Shown here piece after piece: positions 8,601-58,598 of a stretch of DNA of 59,743 bases (position 1 is the stretch's first letter; each line of letters opens with the position of its first letter). The translations under genes and the position numbers were made by a program. The stretch comes from an uncultured bacterium (lineage in GTDB: Bacteria > Macinerneyibacteriota > Macinerneyibacteria > Macinerneyibacteriales > CAYRFE01): NCBI GenBank assembly GCA_964539615.1, contig CAZIJP010000001.1, forward strand, positions 1 to 59,743, read 5' to 3'. The notes under the pieces were generated by a model. The model worked only from the letters and a program-made list of their open reading frames with translations, was not told where the DNA came from and did no database searches.

Positions 8601-10637
8601 TTATCGTTTATTATCAAGAGGTTTGTTTAATTCTTCGGTGCCCTTCAATGCAAACCTGCCGTTCTTGATGATATCTACGCGTGTTCCGTCGGCATGAACA
8701 GACGTGATGGCGCCGATACCCTCATACGGCAGCGTGATATCTGTATGCACGAAAGTATACGCCTGCTGCATATCGGTCTTGCGCAGTAGAGATTTGTCAT
8801 TATCGCGTGCAGTGATCTCTTTATTGTCAATCGGGTTATATACGACAAAATCTTCTTCATGAGAGAAGCACGTGTCTCCGATCGCAAAGTGCGGTCCCAT
8901 CTTCTCGACAATGAGCACCGGCATTTTTTCGATAATACCGTATTTTTGAGCGATCACGTAAGCCAGTGTGTTTGTGCCGATGGCAAATTCGCCGAGTGGC
9001 AACGTCTTATGGGGGAAAAGCAGATTTTCTTCAATATAGTTTTTATTCTCACCGTCATCGGCAAAATTTCCGCAATTGTAGCCGGTCACCCAACCGTCGG
9101 TAAACATGATCTCAAGATCGCTGTATTTCAATCCGTCAAGAAAGGTCTCGGGAACATGCAGCGTGCCGGTAGTGCCTTTTAACTGCGGAGAGGTAAACAC
9201 CTCGCCGACCGGTACATTCACATCGGCTCCGCAGTTGACGAAATTCGTTTGTTTCGAAGGATCGGCAAGTTTCTGCATGGCAACACGCAGATCGGTACGG
9301 TTTCCGGCAACACCTTTTATTTCAACATATTCAGCCTTATCAAGCTCATCGATCATGCATTGCTGCATTTTTTCATACTCAATCGTGTCCAGCATATTGA
9401 TCTCGCATGTGTCGGCAAATATTTCTTCAAAACGATCACCGATCTCCGGTGACGGAAAGGCAGTGATATTGAAGCTGCCTTCGGTGCGAGGCATGAATTT
9501 TTCACGAATCTCGCCCAGTTTTCCGTTCAATTGTTGTCGAATTTGCTGTTGTTCTTTCGACAGCACAAGATTTTCTTTCTTTGACTCGGGAGCAAACGGT
9601 TCCTCGCCGAAGGTTTCCACATATACGGCACCGGAATAGTCGGCAAGAAAATTGCTGCACAGTTCGTTTGCCTTGAGATAGGTCGCAATTCTTTTTTCCA
9701 TAAACTCATTATCCAGATAGAGCGCTTCGTCAAACCGATGGTCATAGGCATACTGACGGTTGCATGCGGTGGATGTTACGCCGTTAAACAACGGTTCCAA
9801 TCCTTTTTCCCGCAAGAGAGCCATTATTCGACGGGTCAACAATTCATATCCCGCAAATGTATAGAGAAAAGCGGTCTTCTTTTTCCGATAGTTCTTTCGG
9901 GCGTTCTCAAATCCCCGTATATATGCGTCCACGATCGTCGAAGCAAGTTTTTCAAGTTTCGCTTCTGGATAGGCACGAAGAAACGCGGCAACTTTTAATT
10001 CATGTTCAGTTATATGATCTCCGTACATATAGAGGTAACGATCATTTGAAAGATCGCTTGAGTCAATAAGGTCCTTTAAGAACGTATGGTCTTGAGAGAA
10101 ACGGTCAAATAGTTCCGCCGCTGTCTTTTCCGGTGAAAGCGACGTGACAGAACGCGTGATCAGTTTTTTAAGAGCATCATAGTCCGGTACGCCGGCATTG
10201 AAGGCATCATTGATATCGATCAACAATTGGTACATTTCCGCAAGTTTATATGCTTTGTCTTCAAAATGAAACACTATGCACCGTCTGAATTGCGTTGCAC
10301 CGTAAGCTGCAAGTTGTCCGTAACGGTCTCCGAGTTTTTCTACGGCAAAACGAGGATTAGCAAAAGACCGTTCATAATTTTTTAATTCGCCATATAATAC
10401 GTGGTTGATCTCTTTCAATCGTGAAACGGGTAGCGTTTTCCATTTTCCGTCACTGAGTTCGCAAGAAATCTCATCAAGAACGACAATCCATGCGGCAAGC
10501 CCCGTTATGAATTCTTTCCAAGCTCCTGATCCGTTTGAACCGTTTTTTGCAATTGCTTCGATCTTCGGGAATAAACCGGATAGTATGGGTTCTGCATCAT
10601 GATTCCATTTTTTAATGATCTCATAAACAGCATGCAT
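8601..10637 (-). CDS. M29-family (AmpS/PepS-like) aminopeptidase with a long N-terminal extension
   Basis: The C-terminal approximately 350 aa carry NVPVGEVFTSP, LGEFAIGTN, GPHFAIGD and HTDITLP, which match my recollection of M29 metal and active-site motifs. AAGGAGA precedes the ATG at 10637 (MHAVYEI), preferred over the track start at 10712. Confidence 0.6.
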   Translation of the reverse strand: MHAVYEIIKKWNHDAEPILSGLFPKIEAIAKNGSNGSGAWKEFITGLAAWIVVLDEISCELSDGKWKTLPVSRLKEINHVLYGELKNYERSFANPRFAVEKLGDRYGQLAAYGATQFRRCIVFHFEDKAYKLAEMYQLLIDINDAFNAGVPDYDALKKLITRSVTSLSPEKTAAELFDRFSQDHTFLKDLIDSSDLSNDRYLYMYGDHITEHELKVAAFLRAYPEAKLEKLASTIVDAYIRGFENARKNYRKKKTAFLYTFAGYELLTRRIMALLREKGLEPLFNGVTSTACNRQYAYDHRFDEALYLDNEFMEKRIATYLKANELCSNFLADYSGAVYVETFGEEPFAPESKKENLVLSKEQQQIRQQLNGKLGEIREKFMPRTEGSFNITAFPSPEIGDRFEEIFADTCEINMLDTIEYEKMQQCMIDELDKAEYVEIKGVAGNRTDLRVAMQKLADPSKQTNFVNCGADVNVPVGEVFTSPQLKGTTGTLHVPETFLDGLKYSDLEIMFTDGWVTGYNCGNFADDGENKNYIEENLLFPHKTLPLGEFAIGTNTLAYVIAQKYGIIEKMPVLIVEKMGPHFAIGDTCFSHEEDFVVYNPIDNKEITARDNDKSLLRKTDMQQAYTFVHTDITLPYEGIGAITSVHADGTRVDIIKNGRFALKGTEELNKPLDNKR

Positions 10638-10749
10638 TGTTAATCTCCTTTTGTTGATACAAATCGACCGAAAAAAACTATACAACAAAAATACGAAACC
10701 GGCAATAGCCAAGACTCTTTAGTAATACGAAATAGTATGAATATGTTGC

Positions 10750-10802: not shown

Positions 10803-12863
10803 TCAGCGGGTCTGGAATATCTGTTCTTTTCCTCCCGGAGGCGTAAGGAACAGCTGTAACGCAAGGTCGTAACGCGGTCCTTGGAAATATTCAACACGAA
10901 TAAAATGCATACCCATTTTCAATTGCACTTGTCCCGTTTTGTCCTGAGGAGGATGCAGGCCGTCGTTGTCAATGACAAGTTTATTGTCGATATAGAGCTT
11001 CGAGCCGTCATCAGAAAGTAAGCGGAAAGAATACATGCCGCCCTTCATGATAAAGATACCGCCGTTATATTGGATACCGAACCATTCGGTCCTATCGGTA
11101 ACGCCGGGGAAACCGCTCTCAAATTTACGCGGCGAAATATCGATCTTTTTGGTATAAATGGTACCGACAGGGTTCAATTTTGAAAAATCGGGAAGTCTAG
11201 GAGTATTCTCAGGTAATAAGTATATCTCCCCCTTGAATGCGCCCGGGATAACGGTCTTTACGCCGAAATCCGAAGATGTGTCGGTTGTTTTTGTCGTAGT
11301 AGTTTTTGTTGTGTCTTGCGGCTCGGCATCGGTTGCGAATATGGTCTCGGCAAATCCCGGCGCAGTAACAAACAACTGCAATGCTATGTCATAACGCGGT
11401 CCCTGGAAATATTCAAGCCGGATAGCATGTACACCCATGTTCAGGTCAACAGTACCGATCTTACTTGACGGACCGTGTGTGCCGTCATTATCAATGATAA
11501 GATTACCGTCTATATAGAGCTTAGAACCGTCATCAGATAATAAACGGAATTTGTAACTACCCGCAGCTTTGACAAAAAAAGCTCCGTTGTACTGAATGGC
11601 GAACCATTCCGTTTTATCGGTAACACCCGGGAAACCGCTGTCAAAACGACGAGGAGCAATGTCGATCTTTTTCGTGTAAATAGTTCCTACAGGTTTCATT
11701 TGAGAAAAATCCGGCAACTTTCTCGTATTCACCGGAAGATCATATATTTCTCCCTTAAAAGCAGCAGCGATTTTCGACGCTCCGCCGAAATCCGATGTTT
11801 TACCGGTATCATTATTTCCGCCGTTTGCCTCAGCATCTGAAGCAAAAATCGTCTCTTTGCTGCCCGGAGCGGTCACAAACAACTGAAGAGCTATATTGTA
11901 ACGCGGCCCTTGGAAATATTCCACTCGAACGGAATGAACACCCATATTCAAATTTACCGTGCCGTTTTTACTTAATGGGCCGTGGATCCCGTCGTTATCA
12001 ATTATCAGTTCTCCGTCAACATACAATTTTGATCCGTCGTCTGAATGGATCCTGAATGTATAGGTACCTGACGTTTTAACTAAAAAAGCGCCGTTGTATT
12101 GAATGGCAAACCATTCTGTCCTGTCGGTCACGCCGGGGAACCCGCCGTCAAAACGTCTCGGAGAAATATCAATCTTTTTTGTGTAGATCGAACCGACCGG
12201 TTGTAATTGTGAAAATACCGGCAGTTTTGACGTTTTCTCAGGTATATTGTAAATATCACCTTTAAAAGCGCCTATGATCTTTTCTGAAGCTCCGAAATCA
12301 GAAGTTTTACCCGGTAATTCGGCATCGGCCGAAAAAAGCGTTTCATCCGCCCCCGGTGCCGCCATAAACAATTGTAATGCTATATCATAGCGGGGACCCT
12401 GAAAATATTCCACACGTATCGTATGAATACCAACGGTCAGATCGACCGATTGCCCTACATCAGACGGGCCGTGTACTCCGTCATTATCAATGATAAGTTT
12501 CCCGTCGATGTATAACTTCGAACCATCATCGGACAACAGCCTGAAAGCATAATTACCGGCTACTTTCGCGGAAAAAGCGCCGTTGTATTGAATCGCAAAC
12601 CATTCAGTGCGGTCGGTAACTCCCGGAAAACCGCTTTCAAAACTACGCGGAGCAATATTCAACTGTTTTGTATAAATACTGCCGACCGGTTTCAATTTTG
12701 AAAAATCGGGAAGCATGTCAGCACCTTCCGGTAAAAAATAAATATCCCCTTTCAATGCAGCCTGAACATACGATGTCTTACCAAATTCACCTGATCCCGT
12801 TTGAGCAAACGAAAAAGAAAATAAAGCAACAAGAAGAATAATCAAGAAAAAAACACGTCCCAT
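10803..12863 (-). CDS. secreted protein with four tandem PA14-like domains
   Basis: A signal peptide is followed by four units of about 163-174 aa. Each unit contains KG(D/E)IY..P, FPGVTD(R/K)TEWFAIQYNG, LLSDDGSKLYIDG.LIIDNDG.HGP and VEYFQGPRY.IALQLF. The FPGVTD anchors fall at aa 82, 245, 414 and 588 in track numbering. The ATG at 12863 has a better SD (AAGGGG) than the GTG at 12872. Confidence 0.8.
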   Translation of the reverse strand: MGRVFFLIILLVALFSFSFAQTGSGEFGKTSYVQAALKGDIYFLPEGADMLPDFSKLKPVGSIYTKQLNIAPRSFESGFPGVTDRTEWFAIQYNGAFSAKVAGNYAFRLLSDDGSKLYIDGKLIIDNDGVHGPSDVGQSVDLTVGIHTIRVEYFQGPRYDIALQLFMAAPGADETLFSADAELPGKTSDFGASEKIIGAFKGDIYNIPEKTSKLPVFSQLQPVGSIYTKKIDISPRRFDGGFPGVTDRTEWFAIQYNGAFLVKTSGTYTFRIHSDDGSKLYVDGELIIDNDGIHGPLSKNGTVNLNMGVHSVRVEYFQGPRYNIALQLFVTAPGSKETIFASDAEANGGNNDTGKTSDFGGASKIAAAFKGEIYDLPVNTRKLPDFSQMKPVGTIYTKKIDIAPRRFDSGFPGVTDKTEWFAIQYNGAFFVKAAGSYKFRLLSDDGSKLYIDGNLIIDNDGTHGPSSKIGTVDLNMGVHAIRLEYFQGPRYDIALQLFVTAPGFAETIFATDAEPQDTTKTTTTKTTDTSSDFGVKTVIPGAFKGEIYLLPENTPRLPDFSKLNPVGTIYTKKIDISPRKFESGFPGVTDRTEWFGIQYNGGIFIMKGGMYSFRLLSDDGSKLYIDNKLVIDNDGLHPPQDKTGQVQLKMGMHFIRVEYFQGPRYDLALQLFLTPPGGKEQIFQTR

Positions 12864-13006
12864 TATAGCCACCCCTTTCGTGATTAATTAACACGTATAA
12901 GTTTAGCATTGACTTGTTATTATTCAAGCACATTCTTACAACAGATTCTTAGAGCAAAGAATGCATTTGGCTTGCGGTTTTTTGATTTTTAGCTATACTC
13001 CTGCAT

Positions 13007-27528: not shown

Positions 27529-29277
27529 ATGAATTATAAAAAAAGTTTGGAATTGATTCAAAAGTTTGAAAAAAGATTGGCCTCTTCTCAGACACTAAAA
27601 CAACAATACTTATATCTTACTAAGCTTACATTGTTGACATTAAATAGCGGTCTTTTTGATTTATGCCGAGAATATGCTTCAAAGAGTATTGAACATGTTG
27701 AAAAGCAGGGAAATAAACAACAATTACCGAATTTATTATATACACTGGGATATAGTTATTATCATCTGGGTATTTATGATAAAGCCTTGGAAACATTGCT
27801 TAGTATTGATTCGCTGTCTTTATCACATAACAATTTACGGTATAAAGGACTTGCTTATTCAGCTGTCGGCCTTGCCTATAGTAAAATGAAAGATTTTCTT
27901 AAAGCAACCTTTTTTTTTGATGAAGCGATGAAATTAGGTCTGCAAATTCGCGATCGTATGGTCATTGCTCGTGCATATAATGCAATTTTTGTAGGTTTCA
28001 GCGAACAACAGCAATTTGATAAATGCTTGGAGCCCCTCAAACAAGGTCTATCGATCGCGGAAGAACTAAGCGATCCAGAATTGATCTCAAGTTTTTATAA
28101 TAACTTGGGATATACCTATCGTAATCTCGGTCAATTTACTACAGCGCTCGAATATTTGTTCAAATGCCTCTATATTCGTGAACTAAGCGGCAATGTTTAT
28201 GGCCTTGCGGTTGTTTTATATAATGTCGGATTCATTTATTACCGCATGGAAGATTATGCGAAATCATTGGAATATTACGAGAAATCGCTTGCATATGCAA
28301 ATCTTGCATCAGATTGCTCGATATTAGATCTGTTGTATGCAGGATTTGCCGATACTTGGGAACAATTAAAGAATTACTCCCATGCCTTGGAATATTTTAA
28401 ACGTTATACCCAAAATCATGAGCAAGTATATAATAATGATAAAACAAGAAAATTCACCGAAATGCAATCACGGTATGAGATCGATAAAAAAGAACGTGAA
28501 GCAGAGATATACCGGTTAAAAAACATTGAATTGGTTGATGTTTTTTCGAAAATGGAACGTCAAAATAAAGAACTATTAAAAATTAATCAGACCAAGGATT
28601 ACATATTAAATATTGTCTCACATGATCTGAAAAACTCCATTAGCGCTATAATTTCATCGATTGACCTGATACCGGAAAAAAACGATCCAATGATAACAAG
28701 ATATATCCTAATGATAAAAAATTCAGCTGATAAATCACTTGAATTGGTTCAATCAATTCTTACCGCATCTAAAATCGAACTCGATGATTTTACCCTTAAT
28801 CTTCAACCGTATGAAATTCAAACATTTTTTGCCGATCACATAGAACACGTAAAATTGATGGCACATAGAAAAACATTAAACCTTTCGTTGGCATTACCCA
28901 AGTTGCCGGTTTTTTGTGCACTTGATTCAGCAAGATTTTGGGAAATAATCAGTAATATTGTTTCAAATGCAGTAAAATTTACGCCTCGAAACGGTTCTAT
29001 TTCCATTAAAGGAACTTGCGTTCAGCAACAAACGGGTGTGTTTTTCAAATTGGCAATAAAAGATTCGGGAATAGGTATCAATAAAGATAAGATCGCTCGC
29101 ATATTCGATAAATTCACCAATGCAAGAAGACAAGGAACCGAGGGTGAACCAACCACGGGGCTTGGATTATCGATTGTAAAACGATTGGTTCAATTACACA
29201 ATGGTAGCATAGCCGTTGTATCTCATGTCGATAAAGGAACTACCGTTACGATCAAACTTCCCGTGTGTCACCCATGA
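27529..29277 (+). CDS. cytoplasmic TPR-repeat sensor histidine kinase
   Basis: 582-aa ORF with no TM segment. It has N-terminal TPR-like repeats, a coiled coil, an H-box (SHDLKNSISAI), an N-box (SNIVSNAVKFT), G1 (DSGIGI) and G2 (TTGLGLSIVK). Confidence 0.8.
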   Translation: MNYKKSLELIQKFEKRLASSQTLKQQYLYLTKLTLLTLNSGLFDLCREYASKSIEHVEKQGNKQQLPNLLYTLGYSYYHLGIYDKALETLLSIDSLSLSHNNLRYKGLAYSAVGLAYSKMKDFLKATFFFDEAMKLGLQIRDRMVIARAYNAIFVGFSEQQQFDKCLEPLKQGLSIAEELSDPELISSFYNNLGYTYRNLGQFTTALEYLFKCLYIRELSGNVYGLAVVLYNVGFIYYRMEDYAKSLEYYEKSLAYANLASDCSILDLLYAGFADTWEQLKNYSHALEYFKRYTQNHEQVYNNDKTRKFTEMQSRYEIDKKEREAEIYRLKNIELVDVFSKMERQNKELLKINQTKDYILNIVSHDLKNSISAIISSIDLIPEKNDPMITRYILMIKNSADKSLELVQSILTASKIELDDFTLNLQPYEIQTFFADHIEHVKLMAHRKTLNLSLALPKLPVFCALDSARFWEIISNIVSNAVKFTPRNGSISIKGTCVQQQTGVFFKLAIKDSGIGINKDKIARIFDKFTNARRQGTEGEPTTGLGLSIVKRLVQLHNGSIAVVSHVDKGTTVTIKLPVCHP

Positions 29278-31740: not shown

Positions 31741-34434
31741 TTACGACTGCTGAATTATATCATCGTACATTTTTTTCCTGCAATCCGGGCAAATACTGTG
31801 GCTAAATTGTGCATCGGTGTGCGATTCAATATATCCCTCAACGCTTTTCCAATCTTCCGCATCATGAATCTTCTTACAATGAGCACAAATATGAATGAAT
31901 CCGCTTAAGACTTTTGTTAAAGAACCTTCAAGTTTTTCATGCATCTCTTGGTTTTCGCGCTCAGCTTTTTCCCTCCGTTCGATCTCAAGCAAGATCTGCT
32001 CATGTAATTTTTTCACATTTATGAGAGTCTTAACCCGAGCAAGCAGCTCATCCTTATCAAAAGGTTTTACCAAATAATCATTAGCCCCGGATTTCAAGCC
32101 TGTTATGATATCGTGTATCTGATTCTTAGCGGTCAACATTAATATCGGCAATTCCATAAGTGAATATTTTTTTCGAATCGTCTCGGCAACATCATATCCG
32201 GACATTCGGGGCATCATCACATCAAGAAGGATAAGATCGGGAACAGAACCTTTCTCTATAATTTTTAAAGCCTCGATCCCGCTTTGTGCTTTGATTACAT
32301 TATATCGTGCGATTGATAAATGATTTAATAATACTTGGAGATTAATCGGATCATCATCAACAATCATAATTGATGCATGAGCATCTGTCCCGATCTCATA
32401 CTCAAGGATTTCTTTTACGTGCCTATGTGATTCTTGCTCAGTAAGCATCGGCAAGTTTTCCTGTGTTATCGGTATATCATTCGCTTTTGCATCACATATG
32501 AATAATGAAAATGTAAATTTTGAACCTTTCCCTTCAACTGATTCGACCGTGATAACACCGCCGTGCAATTCAACAAGTTTTTTTGTAATCGCCAGCCCTA
32601 TTCCCGTTCCGCTGAATCCGCGGAATGTTGCATTTGATGCTTGTTCAAAAGGCATAAATATTCTTTCAAATTGATCTGCCGGAATTCCAATTCCGGTATC
32701 TTCGATTGAAATTGAACACATTTCCTCGTCTTTGACGGCCCTGACCGTTACCGTACCATCATCCGTATATTTTATCGCATTTCCTATCAAATTGATCATG
32801 ATCTGTTGTAATCTGTCCTCATCAGCATAAACACAGGGAAATTCAGCGGGAATATCATTTATCAAAGTAATACTTTTATTATCCGTAAGATGCTTGGTCA
32901 GTTGTAAAACCATATCAACGACGGTATAAAGATTAAGCGGCTTTTTATTAAGTGTGATTGTCTTATTTTTCAAATGGGAAAAATCAAGTATATCATTAAT
33001 CAGGTTAGTTAATCGTTTGCCGCTGTTAATGATCATTATCAAGTTATGTTTTGCTTGTTCCGACATAACTCCGGCAATACCGTCAAATAACGATTGAGCG
33101 ATACCAATGATACCGTTCAACGGCGTTCGAAGTTCATGTGATGTGTTGGCCATAAACTCATCTTTCAGTTTATCGAGTGCAACCAATTTTTCAGAAAACA
33201 TTTCTACTTGTGAAAAAGCGGTCGAAATTCTCAACGACATAATATATGACTGAAAAATAATAAATACAAAAAACCCGACCGGAATCAGATAAGCGGTCAT
33301 GATTATCTGATTCGAATATAAAATATCATTTATAACAGTAACAGACAATACAAGAAATCCGGCAAGCATGACACGGGCACTTTCCTTCTTTTTAATGGAG
33401 GCTCTCACGAGGATGCTTATAATGTAGAATGCACCTACAAGGTCAATGATCTCATACAACGGCAACGTATAAATGTAGATCTTCGCCGGGAAAAACAATA
33501 CTACCGCAGAAAACAGCACGCCGAGCACTATAAAAGTTCCGGTAATACTTTTCACGGAATTATCGGGAAATAGAGAATGAAGATACAAAATAAATACTGA
33601 CAACACCAAATAATGCGGAAGATAATCAAGTTTTACGATAAACTCCCAGCCGGCATTAGGATATATGATATTTAAAAATCGTTCGCCGTTAACTGTAGTG
33701 AATAAAGCGAACAAAAGACATGTTATGCTGAAATATAATGTTGAAATATCTTTTTTCCGAAACATATATAAACTAAAATGATAAAACCCCATCAGAAAAA
33801 GTCCGCCGATAATAAAAAGATCAAAGGCAAGACGTTTCATAAGCCTATTCTGCACTACTTTCTCAGGTCCGATCTCAATCTCGGATTCCAGGCCGCCTCT
33901 GACATGTGAGTAATTGGAAATCTGCATAATTATATCACACTCTTTAGGAAGCGTAGTAAGTGTGGCAACTCTGTTTAGTAATTGAGGAAGAGTTGCATTC
34001 GGAGAAGTTCCAACCTTTCCATTGCCGAGGATTTCTTCACCGTTTACCCAGAGTCTGTATGATGTCAAGGGGAATGGAACAGATAACATGAGGCGACGCG
34101 GTTCATCTTTGAAACGAAGGTGAAGCCTGACCGTCGCATAACCGTGACCGGGCAGATGTCGGTCGCCGATCTTTATTGAATTCCATGTTCCGGGAAAAGT
34201 TATATATCCGCATAAACGGGGAGTTGTTTTATTAAAATCATCAGGTTGAAGTAATTGTTGCCAGTAAAATTCCCATTCACCGCTTAAAGTCACAATATCG
34301 GAAGTGAGTGACACGGCCGTTAGATCGATTACTCCCTTTTCTGCTGTTTTCTGATTTTTATTGTCACTGCCTAATCTACACGACACTACAGATAACAAAG
34401 CAAATACGGTTACTAAAAACAGCAGACGTCTCAT
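31741..34434 (-). CDS. hybrid sensor kinase: 7TMR-DISM extracellular domain, 7TM, HisKA, HATPase, REC and a Cys-rich C-terminal module
   Basis: A signal or lipobox-like N-terminus is followed by an extracellular domain of about 170 aa and seven TM helices. Then come an H-box (SHELRTPLNGI), N/G boxes (GTGIGLAITKKLVELHGG) and a receiver domain (IMIVDDDPINL...LLDVMMP...K). The C-terminus reads HICAHCKKI...FSHSICPDCRKK. Confidence 0.85.
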   Translation of the reverse strand: MRRLLFLVTVFALLSVVSCRLGSDNKNQKTAEKGVIDLTAVSLTSDIVTLSGEWEFYWQQLLQPDDFNKTTPRLCGYITFPGTWNSIKIGDRHLPGHGYATVRLHLRFKDEPRRLMLSVPFPLTSYRLWVNGEEILGNGKVGTSPNATLPQLLNRVATLTTLPKECDIIMQISNYSHVRGGLESEIEIGPEKVVQNRLMKRLAFDLFIIGGLFLMGFYHFSLYMFRKKDISTLYFSITCLLFALFTTVNGERFLNIIYPNAGWEFIVKLDYLPHYLVLSVFILYLHSLFPDNSVKSITGTFIVLGVLFSAVVLFFPAKIYIYTLPLYEIIDLVGAFYIISILVRASIKKKESARVMLAGFLVLSVTVINDILYSNQIIMTAYLIPVGFFVFIIFQSYIMSLRISTAFSQVEMFSEKLVALDKLKDEFMANTSHELRTPLNGIIGIAQSLFDGIAGVMSEQAKHNLIMIINSGKRLTNLINDILDFSHLKNKTITLNKKPLNLYTVVDMVLQLTKHLTDNKSITLINDIPAEFPCVYADEDRLQQIMINLIGNAIKYTDDGTVTVRAVKDEEMCSISIEDTGIGIPADQFERIFMPFEQASNATFRGFSGTGIGLAITKKLVELHGGVITVESVEGKGSKFTFSLFICDAKANDIPITQENLPMLTEQESHRHVKEILEYEIGTDAHASIMIVDDDPINLQVLLNHLSIARYNVIKAQSGIEALKIIEKGSVPDLILLDVMMPRMSGYDVAETIRKKYSLMELPILMLTAKNQIHDIITGLKSGANDYLVKPFDKDELLARVKTLINVKKLHEQILLEIERREKAERENQEMHEKLEGSLTKVLSGFIHICAHCKKIHDAEDWKSVEGYIESHTDAQFSHSICPDCRKKMYDDIIQQS

Positions 34435-42679: not shown

Positions 42680-42850
42680 CTATTGTTTCTTTATGATCTT
42701 TTCGACCTCAGCACTGTATACCAATACGGTGTCTTTGATATCACCCAGGTCTCTGAGTATCATGTCGAGATCACGGCGCAGATATTCAAAACGTTCGCCG
42801 AATCTTTTTTCAATATCATCAAGAAAAGTAAGCTCTTTTTTATTCATCAT
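42680..42850 (-). CDS. unannotated 56-aa charged helical protein, translationally coupled to the kinase gene
   Basis: This ORF is below the track cut-off. Its ATG forms an ATGA overlap with the kinase stop (42847-42850). It reads MMNKKELTFLDDIEKRFGERFEYLRRDLDMILRDLGDIKDTVLVYSAEVEKIIKKQ-stop. Confidence 0.35.
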   Translation of the reverse strand: MMNKKELTFLDDIEKRFGERFEYLRRDLDMILRDLGDIKDTVLVYSAEVEKIIKKQ

Positions 42851-43923
42851 ACGGTTACCTCCGTGAATTTTGGTAATTTACAATAAAACGTAGTTCCTTC
42901 GCCCGCGTTACTTTCGATCCATAGTTTTCCGTCGTGCATCTCAACGATCTCTTTTGATATTGCCAATCCAAGTCCGCTCCCGCCGTATTTTCTTGTCGAA
43001 GAACCATCAACTTGATAAAACATATCAAAGATGTGGTCCCATTCATCACGCGGGATGCCTATCCCTGTATCGCTGACATATAATATACAAAATTCTTCAG
43101 TAATCAAGTTGATTCCTGCGGCAACGGACCCTTTCTCGGTAAATTTCAAAGCATTTGAAATGAGATTATTAAAAAGCATCTTTAACTTATCATAATCGCC
43201 GCGAATACAGATGTTTTTCATGAATCCTTCCAAGGATAAAACCAAGCCCTTCCGGGAAGCGATCGGCTCAAATGTCGCAAGCAGTTCAGCCCCGAGATCG
43301 GCCAAAAATACGCGATCCGAAGCAATAACAACCTTCCCGGCAGCGATCTTGTTGAATTCCAATATCTGATTGATAAGATTAAGCAGTTCTCGGCTTCGTT
43401 CTAATATCCTCTCGAGTTTCTCTTTTTGGTTTTCATTGACCGGACCGAGTATCTCACCGTGTATCAACTCAGTAAAACCGCCAATCGCATTCAATGGTGT
43501 CTTAAGTTCATGAGATATCGTTGCCAAAAATTGGTTTTTTAATATATCGTATTCCTGTAATTTTTTATTCTGCAGTTCAAGCGATGCATTTTTTTCGGAC
43601 AATTCGATCTCTCGTGCCAGTAGCGTTTCTTTCATATCTGAACATACACGGACGAGATCACCTATCTCCAAAGGGTACCGCTCTTTCGTTTCGGTAACGG
43701 CAAGAAGCCCCTTTTCTAATTCGCCACTGCTTAATTTCTTGACTGTTTCCTTTACGGCATGTATGGGCTTAATTATGAAAAAAACGATAAATAAAAACAT
43801 CATTATAAGAACCGCTAGGGCAATAAAAACGGTTACTTGTACTGAAGACGTCAGAATACCTGCAAGTGCAATGAGAATTATAGAGATCGCGCAAAAAATA
43901 CTAGTTTGTGTTTTGATCGTCAT
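42847..43923 (-). CDS. membrane histidine kinase (2 TM, minimal loop, HAMP-like linker, HisKA, HATPase)
   Basis: It carries an H-box (SHELKTPLNAIGG), an N-box (NLISNALKFT), G1 (DTGIGI) and G2 (GGSGLGLAISK). I prefer the ATG at 43923 (GGAGAA upstream) over the track start at 43953. Confidence 0.85.
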   Translation of the reverse strand: MTIKTQTSIFCAISIILIALAGILTSSVQVTVFIALAVLIMMFLFIVFFIIKPIHAVKETVKKLSSGELEKGLLAVTETKERYPLEIGDLVRVCSDMKETLLAREIELSEKNASLELQNKKLQEYDILKNQFLATISHELKTPLNAIGGFTELIHGEILGPVNENQKEKLERILERSRELLNLINQILEFNKIAAGKVVIASDRVFLADLGAELLATFEPIASRKGLVLSLEGFMKNICIRGDYDKLKMLFNNLISNALKFTEKGSVAAGINLITEEFCILYVSDTGIGIPRDEWDHIFDMFYQVDGSSTRKYGGSGLGLAISKEIVEMHDGKLWIESNAGEGTTFYCKLPKFTEVTV

Positions 43924-44887
43924 TGTTGCCGTTCTCCGTAACAGTGATATCAACCATCTTGATTCCCTGTAAATATTCTTTTAATTTATGTTCCTTTTTT
44001 ATGTTTTCCAAATTTTGAAGCGTCTTCGATACTTTGTCGATACCATTGTGGATCCGTTCTAAATACTTCTCATATGGTTCTTTTGCGTCATTTTTCTCCA
44101 GAGCATTTTCCAATAGAAACAATGACCCGCTGATAACAGCAAGAGGATTATTTATTTCGTGGTTAATACCAACTATCAATTGGCTCAGTGCGAGAAGTTG
44201 TTCCGCTTTGGATAATTTTTCTTTATTCATTTGCAGTTCAGCCAATGCCGCTTCCAATTTTGAATTCTGTTCTTGTATTGTCTCAATATAACGCAAACGT
44301 TCTAATGTTAAGGCCAATTGCCCGGCCAACATATTCAATACTGCCACATCGTTGTCTGAAAAGGCGCTTACCTTAGTGGCTGCAACATTCAACATACCCA
44401 ATAATTGATCTTTTATAATCAACGGGATCGAAATGAATGAATGGTAATCTCGTGTCTCAGTTTCGGTCAACTCGCGGAAATAAACGCTTTTTCTGTTCTT
44501 TGCAAGCCACCCTGTCAGACCTTTTCCGTCGCCGATCTCAAACCCTTCGGCTAAATTGACTACTTCGCCAAGAAAATTGACCAGCATCAATTCATTGGTC
44601 TTTTCATCTATTAGGTAAATGGTGGCATAATCATATTGAACAATATCTTTTATGAGTAATAATATATTTTTAAAAGTTTTTTCGGAAATATCACCTGTTT
44701 GTATAATATTACTCATTTCATACAATACAAACAGCTGCTTGAGCATCGAATCTCCGGTACCGTCAGTTAATCGCGCTAATACTTTATCTAAAAGTTCAAC
44801 GCCGTTGATGTCCTCCGAAAGGATCTCCGGACTGAGAACGCCTCGATTGACAAGTATATTAATAAGTATGCTTAATCTCTCTTCCAT
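43901..44887 (-). CDS. GAF-domain protein with a DHp/H-box but no ATP-binding domain
   Basis: It has a GAF-like core (DYATIYLIDEKTNELMLVNF...ISIPLII.DQLLGMLNV), a coiled coil and the H-box GINHEINNPLAVISG. Only about 75 aa follow the His, and no N, G1 or G2 boxes are present. Confidence 0.75.
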   Translation of the reverse strand: MEERLSILINILVNRGVLSPEILSEDINGVELLDKVLARLTDGTGDSMLKQLFVLYEMSNIIQTGDISEKTFKNILLLIKDIVQYDYATIYLIDEKTNELMLVNFLGEVVNLAEGFEIGDGKGLTGWLAKNRKSVYFRELTETETRDYHSFISIPLIIKDQLLGMLNVAATKVSAFSDNDVAVLNMLAGQLALTLERLRYIETIQEQNSKLEAALAELQMNKEKLSKAEQLLALSQLIVGINHEINNPLAVISGSLFLLENALEKNDAKEPYEKYLERIHNGIDKVSKTLQNLENIKKEHKLKEYLQGIKMVDITVTENGNNDDQNTN

Positions 44888-45392: not shown

Positions 45393-45568
45393 TGTAGCCT
45401 TTTTCGAGTAAAAAGCAATGTTTTTATATCAATTTGCTGTGTATGAACATAATCATCCAATCAGTTGCGGATGATCAAGATCTTGTTTTGGGGTAATTGC
45501 AACGGCTTACGAAATATCTTGATTTTTATTCGCCTGCGCTTATACTCACGGTACTAAGGAGGATACGT

Positions 45569-46642
45569 ATGAAATATTTTCTTACATTTGTAGTTTTAAT
45601 ATGCGTTTTTTTTGTATCCGCAGTTGCGTCAAGCTCACCGAAAACAATCGCTACATTTTCAATAGTTGCTTATGATCCCGTAACCGAACAATGGGGAGTT
45701 GCGGTGCAATCGAAATTTTTTGCCGTTGGCGCGGTAGTGCCATATGCAGAGGCAGGGACAGGCGCTATAGCGTCGCAATCATGGGGTAACACAACCTTCG
45801 GCCCTAAAGCGCTTGAAATGATGCGTATGGGAATATCAGCCGATGATGTGATGAAATATTTACTTGCTCCGGACGAGAACCGTGAGAACCGGCAGGTCGG
45901 CATCGTTGATAAGAACGGCACAGTCTCCACATTTACCGGCAATCTTTGCCAGGTTTGGGCAGGCGGAATAAAAGGCGAAATGTTCTGCGTTCAAGGCAAT
46001 ATCCTAGCCGGTGAACCGGTTGTAAAAGCTATGGCTGATGCATATATGAACACGAAAGGAACACTTGCCGAACGCTTACTAGCCGCATTACAGGCAGGAC
46101 AAGATAATGGCGGCGATAAACGCGGGATGCAGTCTGCGGCCATGCTCGTGGTCGCTGAACACGGCGGTTATTCAGGTTACAACGACCGATTGTTAGATAT
46201 TCGAGTAGATGATCACCCTACCCCGATCCTGGAACTCAACCGGTTATACATGATGCACGAGACCACATTTTTAGCCGGGGCATATGTTCGCATGGGTACT
46301 GAAGCGCTCACAAAAGGAAAAAAAGAAAAGGCAGATGCACTTCTTACAAAAGCATTGGAGATCGCGGGACGTAAAAACGATGATCCTTCGATGCTTAATG
46401 AGATAGCATGGGAATTTGCTATAAATAATTATAAACTTGACACCGCCATCAAACTTGCACAAAAAGCTGTCGATCTTACTCAAGGCAAAGATGTCAATAT
46501 CCTTGACACTCTCGCTGAAGCATATGCCAGATCCGGTAATTTCAAAAAGGCGATCGAGATCGAAACCACTGCCAATACGATAGCCCCAAATAAAGATTTC
46601 GATAAAAAGATCAACCTGTGGAAAAAAAGAAAACTGCAATAA
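45569..46642 (+). CDS. DUF1028 (Ntn-hydrolase-like) protein with a signal peptide and a C-terminal TPR region
   Basis: AAGGAGG precedes the ATG at 45569. A signal peptide is followed by the DUF1028 N-terminal signature TFSIVAYDPVTEQWGVAVQSKFFAVGAVVPYAEAGTGAIASQS. The C-terminus has TPR-like repeats. Confidence 0.7.
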   Translation: MKYFLTFVVLICVFFVSAVASSSPKTIATFSIVAYDPVTEQWGVAVQSKFFAVGAVVPYAEAGTGAIASQSWGNTTFGPKALEMMRMGISADDVMKYLLAPDENRENRQVGIVDKNGTVSTFTGNLCQVWAGGIKGEMFCVQGNILAGEPVVKAMADAYMNTKGTLAERLLAALQAGQDNGGDKRGMQSAAMLVVAEHGGYSGYNDRLLDIRVDDHPTPILELNRLYMMHETTFLAGAYVRMGTEALTKGKKEKADALLTKALEIAGRKNDDPSMLNEIAWEFAINNYKLDTAIKLAQKAVDLTQGKDVNILDTLAEAYARSGNFKKAIEIETTANTIAPNKDFDKKINLWKKRKLQ

Positions 46643-54460: not shown

Positions 54461-57400
54461 ATGCAACCGCTATTCATCCGGATCGCATCTTTTTTTAATA
54501 CCCCGGAATCAGTATACCGTATCGATACTTGTTGCGATGATCATGAAGAATCATTTACTATAAGCCCCGGTATCCCGATCTCTCCCGTTATAGAACGCTA
54601 TTTTCACGTTTCTCAATCCTCACTGGCAAATGCCTCGACACTTAATGAGACAATAACTTTGATAAAAAATAGATTCCCGCACCGTACCTATGATTTTATA
54701 ACCTACCATCTACCTGTAAAATTAACATCCGTACTGCCGTGCAGAGAATTCCGCTGTTTCGAACTGGTCATTGATCCGTTTTCTAAAATTTCAGAACACA
54801 AGAACATTCACGAAATGATCGCTTGTTATGAAACGGTTATGCAGACATACGGCATATGGCAAAAAGAAAACTCCGGTTATGATCAGACATGGATTCGATC
54901 CATTCCGCCGTTGCCTCCGCTTTCACGGCACACTCTTACGGAACGATGCGCTGATATTTTATCCGAGAATGCTCGATTGTATAGTGAAACAGGGTTCACA
55001 TACCGAGCGCAGCAAGAGACCTTGGCATTAACGATCGAATCCTGTTTCCGAGAGAACAAACATTTACTATGTAACGCGCCGACCGGTATCGGAAAAAGCC
55101 TCGCTTATTGCGTGAATGCCGCATTGCTTACCGGAAGTGATGCCAATACCCGAGTCGTCATTTCAACGTTCAGTAGACGACTTCAGGACCAGCTCCGCGA
55201 TAAAGACATCCCGTTGACCGAACGTTTGCTCGGGACTTCGTTAAGCGTTGCATATTTAAAAGGCCGCAGTAATTACCTGTGTATCGACCGATTGCAGGCT
55301 ATGTTCAACAAACGCGGGAACGCCCCGACGAAAGATTACATATTTTCAGCAGTGACGGCAGGCATTCGCGAGATCGATGCATTGCAATGCGGCCAGGATA
55401 TGAAAGATGAACTGCGGGCATTTTCCTGTTCACCTGTCTGTGCATATCAAGAGATCTGTTTTTATAAAAAAGCCCGTGAACGAGCAGCCCAGGCACAGAT
55501 CTGTGTCATAAACCATGCCCTACTTATCCGTGAATTAGCATTCGGGCGTCTGAAACACGTTACGCATCTGGTGGTTGATGAAGCGCATCATATCGAAGAA
55601 CTCGCCGTCAATGAACTCGGCGGTGAATTGACTCGGGACACATTCCGATTTTGTGATTTTGCCGTAGCGCCGTTGGTGCGTGAATTTTCACGAAAATGGC
55701 GCAGTATGTTTGAAGATCTCGAATCATTGGACCATGAGGCAGTCGAATTATTTTTACAGGACTCAAAAACTATTAGAACGCTCATAAGCGAACCTGATGT
55801 ACGCGAACAATTTGATGCGGCCGTTCAGATCGTCCGTCGATATTTTCTCTTTAAAGAACATTACTACACTGAACCGATCGAACGCCATGACGGCAGAATT
55901 TACAAACTGTACCCATATCGGATAGACGGATGGATGCGGCAAAAATTCTGGGATAAATTCTCATCTGTATGTATGCTTTCCGGAACATTGTTCGTGAATG
56001 AAGGCGCAATGCTCGGGATAGTAAAACGCACGTTCGGTGTTGCAAAAGACGAACGCGTTTTAACCTTATCACTACCGTCTCCGTTTGATTATGCTTCAAA
56101 TGTTCGCTTTTTCGTGCCGGTCGATTTTCCTCGTTACAACTTTCAGGAAAAACATATTTTTATGGATGCCGTAACGGCTTTTTTAAAGGAATATCTTATA
56201 CGGACGGAAACAAAAGCATTAATACTGTTCACCGCGTATGAAGATATGCGTCATATCGCAGATCTGATGAGCGATTATTTTACGGAACAAGGAATTCAGC
56301 TTTTTATGAATGAATATGACGAACAAGCGGTATCATCGGTGCCGTTCCCGGTGATCTTCGGCACATACGGCATGTGGGAAGGCGTGGACATATCCGGCGA
56401 CCTTCTCCATTCGGTCATCATGATCAAATCACCGTTCTCTTCACCGAATGACGGATTTTTTAAAGCCAAACAACAGATCATGGATGATGCGCTTTTTTAT
56501 TTATATTATCTCAATCACGCCGTTATGAAATTCCGTCAAGGATTTGGTCGATTAATAAGGTCGGTGGAAGATCGCGGTATTTTTATTTTATTGGATAACC
56601 GCATAACCACGAAAAGTTATAAAAATTTCTTTCTTCGCTCGGTATCGGATGACCTGCAATTGTCATTTGTGCCGACAAGGGATATTTTCAACAAAGCAGA
56701 AAGTTTCTTGTTTGACAAAACCGGTCTTTTTCTCAAAGACTATCGAACGGAAACTGATACGTTCCGTTTCCTCGATTATAAGCAGCTGTATATCGCGCGT
56801 GACGGTGAACGCGGTATAAAGATCATCTATGGCAGCGCGGGGACCGGAAAAACGGTCGTCCTCATTCATCGCTTAAAGTTTTTACTCATGAATTTTCCCC
56901 ATATCGAACGTGTACTCTTTTTGACCTTCAATGCTGCGCTTGCGCGATTTATAGAAAACATTCTCCACCTCGAAGGCATTGATCTGACGGAAAAGACGAT
57001 CGACGTTCGTTACTTTTACGAGTTGTGCGCCGCCATTGAACCGAAACCGGATACTATGAATGATTTTTCCGCATACTATCGCTCGATATTACAACGGATT
57101 ACAGAAGATCCGACACAAATCGTACCATATGATGCCGTATTTATTGATGAAGGACAAGACCTCGGTTTATTGGAGTATGATATCGTTACCCGTTTCCTGA
57201 ACCCGTCTTCAGCTGATTTCATGTGTGCGATAGATAAACATCAAGCGATCTATGATATTGATTTTTCGCGTTTTTTTACCGATAAGCCAATCCGTTATTA
57301 TTCAGTGGAACATTCATATCGTACTACTGCAGCGATACAAACAATTGCTGCGCGATACAATCGCTCACTTTTTGTTACGGATGATGATATGTACTTCAAT

Positions 57401-57913
57401 TACGGTTCAGAGATTGATGTTTTAGAAAATAATGATCCCCAACAACTATTTATATCAATTTCAAATTACATTGCAGGAAAACTTAAAGAAGGTTATACCC
57501 CCGGCGATTGTGCCGTAATCTATCCCAAACATGCATTATACGGGTCTGTAAACATTGCAAGCACCATCGGTGAGGTATTGCGTTCTCATGGCGTTAGAGT
57601 GACCACGTTAACGTTGCCGAAAATGAAAAAAAACTTCACATTACGAGATAACACGGTAAAGCTCACCACCGTCCATTCATCGAAAGGTTTGGAATTCAAA
57701 GTCGTCATTTTTTTAGGCGCTGACACAATACCTCTCAATGATGCCAATAAAAGGCTCTGTTATGTAGCAGTGACTCGCGCCAGAGAAATTCTCTGCTGTG
57801 CGTATATGAAACCGGCACATTGCGCAGAGTTTCTCAAAACACAAAACCGTAACGGCCCGCCACCATCATCATCAATACTATCCGATTCGAAGAGTGATGA
57901 TCCCAAACATTAA
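54461..57913 (+). CDS. dual helicase: DinG/XPD-type Fe-S SF2 helicase fused to a UvrD-like SF1 helicase
   Basis: aa 175-720 carry APTGIGKS, LKGRSNYLC, the Cys cluster C274/C310/C323/C327/C333, VVDEAHH, WEGVDISGD, IKSPFSSP and QGFGRLIRS. aa 770-1115 carry GSAGTGKT, LTFNAALA, FIDEGQD, DKHQAIYD, HSYRTT, VHSSKGLEFKVVIF and YVAVTRAREIL. The frame is single and uninterrupted. It starts 4 nt after the previous stop. Confidence 0.8.
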   Translation: MQPLFIRIASFFNTPESVYRIDTCCDDHEESFTISPGIPISPVIERYFHVSQSSLANASTLNETITLIKNRFPHRTYDFITYHLPVKLTSVLPCREFRCFELVIDPFSKISEHKNIHEMIACYETVMQTYGIWQKENSGYDQTWIRSIPPLPPLSRHTLTERCADILSENARLYSETGFTYRAQQETLALTIESCFRENKHLLCNAPTGIGKSLAYCVNAALLTGSDANTRVVISTFSRRLQDQLRDKDIPLTERLLGTSLSVAYLKGRSNYLCIDRLQAMFNKRGNAPTKDYIFSAVTAGIREIDALQCGQDMKDELRAFSCSPVCAYQEICFYKKARERAAQAQICVINHALLIRELAFGRLKHVTHLVVDEAHHIEELAVNELGGELTRDTFRFCDFAVAPLVREFSRKWRSMFEDLESLDHEAVELFLQDSKTIRTLISEPDVREQFDAAVQIVRRYFLFKEHYYTEPIERHDGRIYKLYPYRIDGWMRQKFWDKFSSVCMLSGTLFVNEGAMLGIVKRTFGVAKDERVLTLSLPSPFDYASNVRFFVPVDFPRYNFQEKHIFMDAVTAFLKEYLIRTETKALILFTAYEDMRHIADLMSDYFTEQGIQLFMNEYDEQAVSSVPFPVIFGTYGMWEGVDISGDLLHSVIMIKSPFSSPNDGFFKAKQQIMDDALFYLYYLNHAVMKFRQGFGRLIRSVEDRGIFILLDNRITTKSYKNFFLRSVSDDLQLSFVPTRDIFNKAESFLFDKTGLFLKDYRTETDTFRFLDYKQLYIARDGERGIKIIYGSAGTGKTVVLIHRLKFLLMNFPHIERVLFLTFNAALARFIENILHLEGIDLTEKTIDVRYFYELCAAIEPKPDTMNDFSAYYRSILQRITEDPTQIVPYDAVFIDEGQDLGLLEYDIVTRFLNPSSADFMCAIDKHQAIYDIDFSRFFTDKPIRYYSVEHSYRTTAAIQTIAARYNRSLFVTDDDMYFNYGSEIDVLENNDPQQLFISISNYIAGKLKEGYTPGDCAVIYPKHALYGSVNIASTIGEVLRSHGVRVTTLTLPKMKKNFTLRDNTVKLTTVHSSKGLEFKVVIFLGADTIPLNDANKRLCYVAVTRAREILCCAYMKPAHCAEFLKTQNRNGPPPSSSILSDSKSDDPKH

Positions 57914-58210: not shown

Positions 58211-58238
58211 TTGACAAGAGGGTTTTACCTGTTATGAT
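58211..58238 (+). promoter_or_regulatory. sigma70-like promoter of the RRM gene
   Basis: TTGACA (58211-58216), a 16-nt spacer, then TATGAT (58233-58238), in a very AT-rich upstream region. Confidence 0.5.
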
Positions 58239-58291
58239 TCGTTTGTGGCTAGTTGTTATTTGGCTTTGACCTTTTTTCCAGGAGGATTTTA

Positions 58292-58549
58292 ATGGAATTC
58301 AAAGTTTACGTAGGTAATCTCCCGTATCGCACAACAGAAGAAGAAATGAAACAATTCTTCGGCACCGCTGGCAATGTAGTTGACGCACGCATCATCAGAG
58401 ACAAAGAAACCAACCGTTCTAAAGGTTTCGGTTTCGTATCTTTTGATTCTGAAGAAGGCGTTGACAAAGCAATCGAAACCCTGAATGGTAAAGCATTCGG
58501 CGATCGTCCGCTTAAAGTTGACCGCGCTAAAGCTCGCGAAAACGCATAA
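58292..58549 (+). CDS. RRM-type glycine-poor RNA-binding protein
   Basis: RNP-2 (VYVGNL) and RNP-1 (KGFGFVSF) are present in about 85 aa. AGGAGG lies 7 nt before the ATG at 58292. Confidence 0.85.
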   Translation: MEFKVYVGNLPYRTTEEEMKQFFGTAGNVVDARIIRDKETNRSKGFGFVSFDSEEGVDKAIETLNGKAFGDRPLKVDRAKARENA

Positions 58550-58575
58550 GTAGATTAATCTATTCATGTTTCTTA

Positions 58576-58598
58576 GGGCGGTGCAAACCGCCCTTTTT
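58576..58598 (+). terminator. intrinsic terminator of the RRM gene
   Basis: gggcggt - gcaa - accgccc is followed by TTTTT. Confidence 0.8.

Follow-up and report, generated by a model that had tools for sequence, protein, structure and literature searches.

Can one bacterial polypeptide carry complete helicase motors from two superfamilies, and if it can, what might such a protein do? Both questions are raised by an open reading frame (ORF) on contig CAZIJP010000001.1 of an uncultured bacterium of the Macinerneyibacteriota, which we analyzed over its full 59,743 nucleotides (hereafter the window). The ORF, at 54461..57913 on the plus strand with its stop codon included, opens with an ATG, contains no internal stops in the ORF listing, and encodes 1150 amino acids (aa). 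The original prediction took the product for a single polypeptide combining a DinG/XPD-type iron-sulfur (Fe-S) helicase of superfamily 2 (SF2) with a compact UvrD-like helicase of superfamily 1 (SF1), a description borne out by profile searches, by a confident structural model of the SF1 half and by conservation among orthologues. The motifs that it quoted were all found where it had placed them: APTGIGKS (206-213), LKGRSNYLC (266-274), VVDEAHH (371-377), WEGVDI (639-644), KSPFS (656-660), and QGFGRLIRS (693-701) in the DinG half, and GSAGTGKT (791-798), DEGQD (896-900), Q928 and Y931, SYR (952-954), HSSKGLEF (1072-1079), and YVAVTRA (1101-1107) in the SF1 half. Judged by its sequence and that of five full-length orthologues (P0001, P0002, P0246, P0247, P0248), the fusion is a genuine, vertically inherited three-module protein, pseudo-exonuclease / Fe-S DinG / SF1A-like, and not a product of assembly or frameshift.

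Integrity and distribution of the fusion

Among 5.8 billion proteins searched by word index, P0001 (63% identity) and P0002 (39%) were the only full-length relatives, all other matches covering the DinG part only. Scanning 1.84 billion cluster representatives with a three-sequence HMMER profile added P0246, P0247, and P0248 (1106-1134 aa) as full-length members, together with three fragments, the window protein's own cluster being represented by one of them; scores fall from about 1100 to 309 bits after the fusion members, and what remains are proteins with the DinG part alone, none longer than 1021 aa. Among these representatives there are three full-length clusters at 50% identity, plus that of the window protein. 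The six full-length members, window included, are 38-70% identical, and both sets of ATPase motifs are intact in every one. Outside this set the architecture is hard to find: in 185,579 GTDB species genomes, one per species, there was no fusion, only DinG or ExoDinG proteins (DinG helicases that bear an exonuclease domain at the N-terminus) of 25-39% identity over aa ~140-730, and two junction-specific peptide patterns run against 241 million JGI metagenome records hit a single locus, L089, which encodes a P0002-like protein. The hosts of known members span a guanine-plus-cytosine (GC) content of 0.24-0.52, suggesting that the family is old enough to have reached very different genomes, yet its distribution is very narrow. 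A database search for the same architecture, proposed in the original prediction as a check, therefore gives five other full-length orthologues of an extremely rare protein, all in housekeeping neighborhoods. The annotated start of one of these, P0248 (1106 aa), at L084:9935-10000, has probably been called 22 codons too far downstream; an in-frame ATG upstream of the call adds MEKKTVFFYFHSLFNTKDSVYH and restores an N-terminal segment conserved in the family.

The junction between the two motors is where an artefact would be expected to betray itself, and the original prediction had singled it out for that purpose. DinG models stop at about aa 749-750 (TIGR01407 reaching position 888 of 889), the model for a candidate NERD+UvrD protein starts at aa 767, and the two are separated by a linker of about 15-20 residues (some 17 between the model ends), which we place at aa 751-769 (19 aa, 56711..56767, plus strand). 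The linker itself is variable in sequence, while its flanks, FxxxR[DE]IFNxAExFLF and FLDxxQxYxARDG, are kept in all six members and rank among the best-conserved stretches of the six-member alignment. In the same alignment the mean pairwise identity of the two halves is equal (45.2% and 45.9%), which points to one old fusion whose parts have been under similar constraint. No Met codon occurs between aa 736 and 810, leaving no ATG for a separate complete SF1 protein, although GTG and TTG starts were not checked. An internal start for such a protein was rejected on this ground and because the promoter-like site at 56660-56688 matches at only 9 of 12 positions, within chance expectation. That adjacent ordinary dinG and UvrD-like genes were merged by an assembly or sequencing error is an idea with nothing behind it except the general expectation that contigs of metagenome-assembled genomes can contain long chimeric ORFs that are artefacts; we consider it extremely improbable, as the same continuous ORF and conserved junction recur in at least five other samples, assembled independently, and as none of 80 ordinary DinG loci offers an SF1-half homologue within 10 kb for mis-joining. 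Beyond the SF1 half, the protein ends in a Pro/Ser-rich tail (aa 1118-1150, 57812..57910, plus strand) that is non-conserved, being absent or unalignable in the orthologues.

The three modules

The DinG/XPD-type SF2 helicase occupies aa 175-750 (54983..56710, plus strand) and, from profiles and motifs, comprises motor domain 1 with an Fe-S insert, an Arch region, and motor domain 2. Above the Pfam gathering cut-offs are Helicase_C_2 (PF13307, aa 578-729, 56192..56647; E 1e-30, 107.5 bits), which covers motifs IV-VI including QGFGRLIR, and, at aa 182-248, DEAD (38.4 bits) and ResIII; DEAD_2 at aa 326-392 falls just under its cut-off (19.9 vs 21 bits). Motifs I, Ia, II, III, IV, V, and VI are conserved in all six members; the Walker A motif (55076..55099, with K212) is invariant except for S or T at position 213, and the DEAH box (aa 373-376, 55577..55588) is invariant throughout. 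Five Cys had been suggested to mark a 4Fe-4S domain, and for four of them this stands: C274, C323, C327, and C333 (55280..55459) are invariant in all six members and lie between motif Ia (233-246) and motif II, whereas C310 is not conserved. We read the four-Cys site as a predicted 4Fe-4S domain in motor domain 1.

The DinG half misses every NCBIfam equivalog cut-off for its relatives (YoaA, 300.8 bits against 680; PRK08074, 299.7 against 789; TIGR01407, 274 against 548; PRK11747, 217 against 598), which suggests a distinct subfamily. The PADLOC model for type-IV DinG scores 289 bits over aa 176-738, close to what the housekeeping YoaA/DinG models give (~300 bits), so that this match indicates general DinG similarity only. 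By sequence, the best PDB match is the ExoDinG entry 8zef (156 bits), followed by E. coli DinG (6fwr, 85 bits), and aa 140-750 find their closest relatives in ExoDinG proteins from Chloroflexota, Poribacteria, and Paenibacillaceae.

The first 170 or so residues had been thought to match nothing, a view that profile-profile alignment to ExoDinG N-termini argues against. With hhalign, the N-terminus of the six-sequence family aligns to a profile of 183 ExoDinG N-termini with a probability of 89% and an E of 2e-6; over 165 columns the two run colinearly, family aa 14-177 being paired with positions 16-257 of the 260 in the ExoDinG profile. This profile supersedes a smaller one of 10 ExoDinG N-termini, which had given only a weak local match (probability 10%). 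Several tblastn and HMMER alignments to ExoDinG also extend from the helicase back to aa 73-140. The catalytic positions of ExoDinG are replaced, RIASFFNT standing at DxETTG and YHLPVKL at HNxxFD, and no acidic residue is conserved across the six members at the positions aligned with the D-E-D-D-h catalytic residues. We therefore describe aa 1-174 (54461..54982, plus strand) as, most likely, a degenerate DnaQ/DEDDh-type exonuclease domain with a linker to the helicase, which from this alignment would correspond to the N-terminal domain of ExoDinG with its catalytic residues lost. Other searches gave little here: Pfam found nothing meaningful in three N-termini at E<=10, with RNase_T not detected; the N-terminal alignment, run as a profile against the PDB, retrieved no meaningful match, the best being KICSTOR (E 0.06); and an AlphaFold2 (AF2) model of the N-terminal 178 aa, built from six family sequences, had low confidence (predicted local distance difference test, pLDDT, 42) and was not used for a fold search. 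The strings TCCDDHEE and LPCREFRC, to which the original prediction had drawn attention, are not conserved in the family, and the idea that the N-terminal Cys pairs form a metal site was rejected, the cysteines not being conserved.

The third module (aa 770-1117, 56768..57811, plus strand) is a minimal UvrD-type, SF1A-like core from which subdomains 1B and 2B appear largely absent. Pfam places UvrD-helicase (784-836), AAA_19 (784-931), UvrD_C (1049-1116), and UvrD_C_2 above their cut-offs, so that the profile scan that had been suggested for both halves supports each of them. Motifs Q, I, Ia, II, III, IV, V, and VI are conserved in all six members, AGTGKT within Walker A (56831..56854, with K797) and the DEGQD of motif II (57146..57160) being invariant. 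An AF2 model from a 56-sequence alignment is confident (pLDDT 88; predicted template modeling score, pTM, 0.83), and in a Foldseek search of the PDB it ranks UvrD, PcrA, and Rep first (E 1e-15 to 1e-12; query TM score, TMq, 0.61-0.73), followed by SLFN11, Upf1, RecD2, and HelD (1e-13 to 1e-10). The 374-residue query is stretched over ~620-650 UvrD columns in these alignments, and the large unmatched UvrD insertions suggest a minimal 1A/2A core with little of 1B or 2B. The four-subdomain architecture (1A, 1B, 2A, 2B) of ~650-720 aa is accordingly not found in this core of only ~350 aa.

Sequence comparisons place the SF1 half nearest not to the classical helicases but to proteins of ~600-630 aa with a nuclease-related domain (NERD) and a UvrD-like helicase (up to 212 bits, 27-31% identity, ~90% coverage). 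The PADLOC model for the NERD+UvrD candidate C3a187 gives 102 bits over aa 767-1113, matching model positions 196-543 only, and Pfam found no NERD domain (PF08378) in the fusion protein. NCBIfam models for uvrD, pcrA, and rep reach 30-40 bits over motifs V-VI against cut-offs above 900, those for recB and addA match only stretches the size of motifs V/VI (24-30 bits), and there is weak N-terminal similarity to the RNA polymerase (RNAP)-recycling motors HelR and HelD; no nuclease domain of the RecBCD/AddAB type was detected in the fusion protein with Pfam or NCBIfam. From these affinities, the source of the SF1 half was probably the NERD-helicase clade, whose motor would have been captured while the NERD nuclease was lost.

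Genomic context

The context of the fusion gene is housekeeping at all six loci. In the window and at L001, genes for LplA, two ABC exporters, and an M50B peptidase precede the helicase gene, the last step being a 3-nt gap or overlap. At L002, L084, and L089 an operon for a NuoE/NuoF-like, NADH-dependent group A6 [FeFe]-hydrogenase lies directly downstream of the helicase, an arrangement shared by members of about 40% identity; L089, from a low-GC lineage, also has RecG (33-1130) and a small membrane protein upstream, and the neighbors at L083 are PurL and pyruvate-phosphate dikinase (PPDK). Synteny with such core metabolic genes is retained between members just 38-63% identical. The original prediction had pointed to the recurrence of both helicase classes in anti-phage systems, a hint that finds no echo here, as none of the six loci contains a defense gene (cas/csf, GajA, nuclease, or other). 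PADLOC finds among the window neighbors generic ABC-ATPase similarity and a weak histidine kinase match (28 bits, candidate PDC-M43B), and no cas genes in the ten flanking ORFs scanned, a CRISPR-array search not having been run. The GC content of the gene equals that of its flanks in the window, L001, and L084.

Close to the fusion gene, the window also encodes a small RRM_1 RNA-binding protein (58253-58549), bracketed by a promoter-like site at 58211-58238 (11/12 with an extended -10 TG, the best of the region) and a strong terminator-like hairpin at 58575-58594; from these signals, this gene is probably a highly expressed monocistronic unit. The nearest stand-alone NERD+UvrD-like helicase, P0122 (L085-L088, 6001-7842), comes from the sole NERD-helicase locus that we read. 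Its gene appears to form one operon with genes for a Metallophos (SbcD-like) protein and an 1167-aa SMC_N/AAA_23 ATPase, in a defense island with an MNT/HEPN pair before it and BREX BrxE/BrxA after it, and this neighborhood looks like an undescribed or poorly described defense module.

Elsewhere, the window codes for LptF, MsbA, TilS, and MurA, the last 64% identical to MurA of Candidatus Mcinerneyibacterium aminivorans, a member of a candidate phylum. A 689-aa protein (10803-12872, minus strand) ends in a fibro-slime domain (TIGR02148; the name comes from Fibrobacter), and the adjoining ORF at 8601-10712 (703 aa) has no NCBIfam match. Between 3000 and 7000 the GC content is 0.33-0.34, against ~0.40-0.45 across the remaining contig, which may mark an island or DNA acquired horizontally. 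A DUF1028+TPR protein (45497-46642) encoded beside a cobalamin adenosyltransferase, and several histidine or hybrid kinases (27529-29277, 31741-34434, and 42847-44887), are ordinary chromosomal content. The window contains no tRNA genes or Rfam matches.

Function and relation to known systems

What might a protein of this kind do in such surroundings? Our preferred reading, held tentatively and a little short of what we would call probable, is that of a chromosomal helicase for genome maintenance whose two motors are both active and opposite in polarity, acting at replication-transcription conflicts or R-loops. UvrD-type SF1A motors move 3'-5', and in the Foldseek ranking the SF1 model is nearer to UvrD, PcrA, and Rep than to RecD2 and Upf1. 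For the DinG family, two papers give a polarity of 5'-3' (PMC3270479; PMC10450177). If both family rules hold, motors on opposite strands at a fork would advance together. The fusion would then be the lineage's ExoDinG-type DinG plus an added second motor, and would work at forks, R-loops, or sites where replication and transcription collide. One strand would be followed 5'-3' by the DinG motor and the complementary strand 3'-5' by the SF1A-like motor, both moving the same way into the duplex by a RecBCD-like bipolar logic within a single chain and with no nuclease, while the dead exonuclease domain might serve as a single-stranded DNA-binding or regulatory module. Genetics points the same way, as E. 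coli DinG acts together with Rep and UvrD (Boubakri 2010, as cited by PMC11981726) and loss of DinG worsens PcrA depletion in B. subtilis (PMC8074105); given these links, the most economical proposal is a role at R-loops or at conflicts between replication and transcription.

Several observations pull the other way. Both the polarity and the helicase activity of the two halves are predicted from family membership, and S. aureus ExoDinG is described (PMC3270479; PMC11981726) as a nuclease without helicase activity, although that protein is without the Fe-S cysteines retained by the fusion protein. Without 2B, a minimal SF1 core might translocate but not unwind. The closest relatives of the SF1 half are NERD-helicases, and the one such locus read is in a defense island. 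No neighbor is common to all six loci, which leaves no hint of a pathway, and at the low-GC loci the gene is AT-richer than its flanks (GC 0.23 vs 0.32 at L089 and 0.27 vs 0.35 at L083). Finally, the 60 kb of host genome in view are too little to score stand-alone dinG, uvrD/pcrA, or recBCD/addAB. When origin and mechanism are taken together, the scenario of a single-chain bipolar helicase (5'-3' Fe-S SF2 plus 3'-5' 2B-less SF1A) that would have arisen when a housekeeping ExoDinG with a decayed exonuclease captured the motor of a NERD-helicase seems possible, if on the doubtful side.

Instead of unwinding in concert, the two motors could divide the labor. The SF1 part would then be a protein-displacing or RNAP-engaging translocase, in the manner of UvrD, PcrA, or HelD, that delivers or anchors DinG at stalled transcription complexes or R-loops, with the motors working on different substrates or one after the other. 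The SF1 core without most of 1B and 2B would suit such a role, as would its weak HelR/HelD similarity in NCBIfam, the HelD structures among its Foldseek matches, the RNAP binding and R-loop suppression reported for UvrD and PcrA (PMC8318588), and the resolution of R-loops by DinG (PMC11981726). However, neither the C-terminal Tudor domain of UvrD/PcrA nor the N-terminal arm of HelD, nor any other RNAP-interaction element, is detectable in the protein, its C-terminal tail is not conserved, and the SF1 half keeps the full helicase motif set, including III, IV, and V, and not its ATPase motifs alone. We consider this division of labor rather unlikely. An anti-phage or anti-plasmid helicase, serving on its own as sensor or effector and unwinding or stripping the DNA of invaders, strikes us as decidedly unlikely, even though both modules recur in defense systems (CasDinG, GajB, NERD-UvrD candidates) and the PADLOC models for type-IV DinG, C3a187, and, at no more than 68 bits, GajB all match. 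The island around P0122, the closest stand-alone SF1 relative, the patchy and very rare distribution, and the AT-rich gene at two loci would also fit a defense role. Yet the six loci are free of defense genes, the protein has no active nuclease (NERD being absent and the exonuclease degenerate), the PADLOC DinG score is no higher than those of housekeeping models, and the retained synteny and equal divergence of the halves resemble vertical descent.

The literature accords with the statement in the original prediction that no DinG-UvrD fusion has been characterized. A review of DinG-like proteins (Cheng 2025, PMC11981726) distinguishes ten subgroups, among them DinG, YoaA, CasDinG, CasDinG-HNH, ExoDinG, pExoDinG, EndoDinG, RadC-like, and sDinG; none of the ten includes a second helicase, the term SF1 is absent from its text, and UvrD appears there only as a partner. 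Full-text searches of the literature for the domain pair and for NERD-helicases likewise found no description of the architecture. From its domain content, the fusion is best filed as a previously undescribed architectural variant of the DinG-like superfamily, pseudo-Exo-DinG-SF1A, and would be its eleventh architecture.

Should the scenario of a single-chain bipolar helicase with a captured NERD-helicase motor be true, the protein would be the first dual-motor enzyme to pair SF2 with SF1 and a covalent "Rosetta stone" for the cooperation of DinG with UvrD/Rep that is known genetically in E. coli. The fusion may also be taken as independent comparative-genomic evidence that DinG and UvrD/Rep/PcrA activities meet on one substrate. 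Most work on motor coupling and polarity has dealt with machines of several subunits, like RecBCD, AddAB, and the XPB/XPD pair of TFIIH, and a 130-kDa single chain with one motor per presumed polarity, drawn from two superfamilies, may prove a compact model for the coordination of two motors at a fork. In Rep and UvrD the 2B subdomain is autoinhibitory, and an SF1 half that is naturally without 2B would be a natural experiment on this regulation. The reach of the finding is limited, as the family is confined to a few uncultured lineages and its function is a predicted one.

Among known systems, ExoDinG comes closest to the first two modules: it has a DnaQ-like N-terminus, as the fusion most likely does, followed by a DinG helicase (Cheng 2025, PMC11981726; S. 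aureus DinG, PDB 8zef), and the Fe-S-containing ExoDinGs have a four-Cys site similar to that of the fusion. The probably inactive exonuclease may be compared to that of the pExoDinG subgroup (PMC11981726), by analogy rather than by established kinship with the Caulobacter-type (DEDDy-like) form. Neither ExoDinG nor pExoDinG has an SF1 helicase, whereas the fusion carries an entire extra one at its C-terminus, and its identity to any ExoDinG is 25-39%. CasDinG of type IV-A CRISPR systems shares the DinG-type motor; its gene, however, lies beside csf genes, and its Fe-S domain is vestigial and holds no cluster (PMC10450177; PMC11981726), in contrast to the four conserved Cys of the fusion. Both CasDinG and the Gabija protein GajB have adjacent partners (csf/cas and GajA, respectively), while the neighbors of the fusion are LplA, ABC exporters, an M50B peptidase, and an RRM protein.

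For the third module, the NERD+UvrD-like helicases (PF08378 plus UvrD; C3a187) have in common with aa 767-1117 the compact SF1 core, but where they carry the NERD domain, the fusion has its pseudo-Exo-DinG part, and the one such helicase whose locus was read, P0122, is in a defense island rather than a housekeeping neighborhood. UvrD, PcrA, and Rep share all the SF1 motifs and are the best structural matches; they are, however, ~650-720 aa proteins with 1B, 2B, and a C-terminal RNAP-binding domain that the ~350-aa core does without, and with a sequence identity to the SF1 half of ~14% in Foldseek, the fusion is not an orthologue of any of them. The likeness to RecBCD, AddAB, and AdnAB would be one of logic only, that of two coupled motors of presumed opposite polarity: those machines are heteromeric, use SF1 motors only, and have PD-(D/E)XK nucleases and Chi recognition, whereas the fusion would join an SF2 and an SF1 motor in a single chain with no active nuclease.

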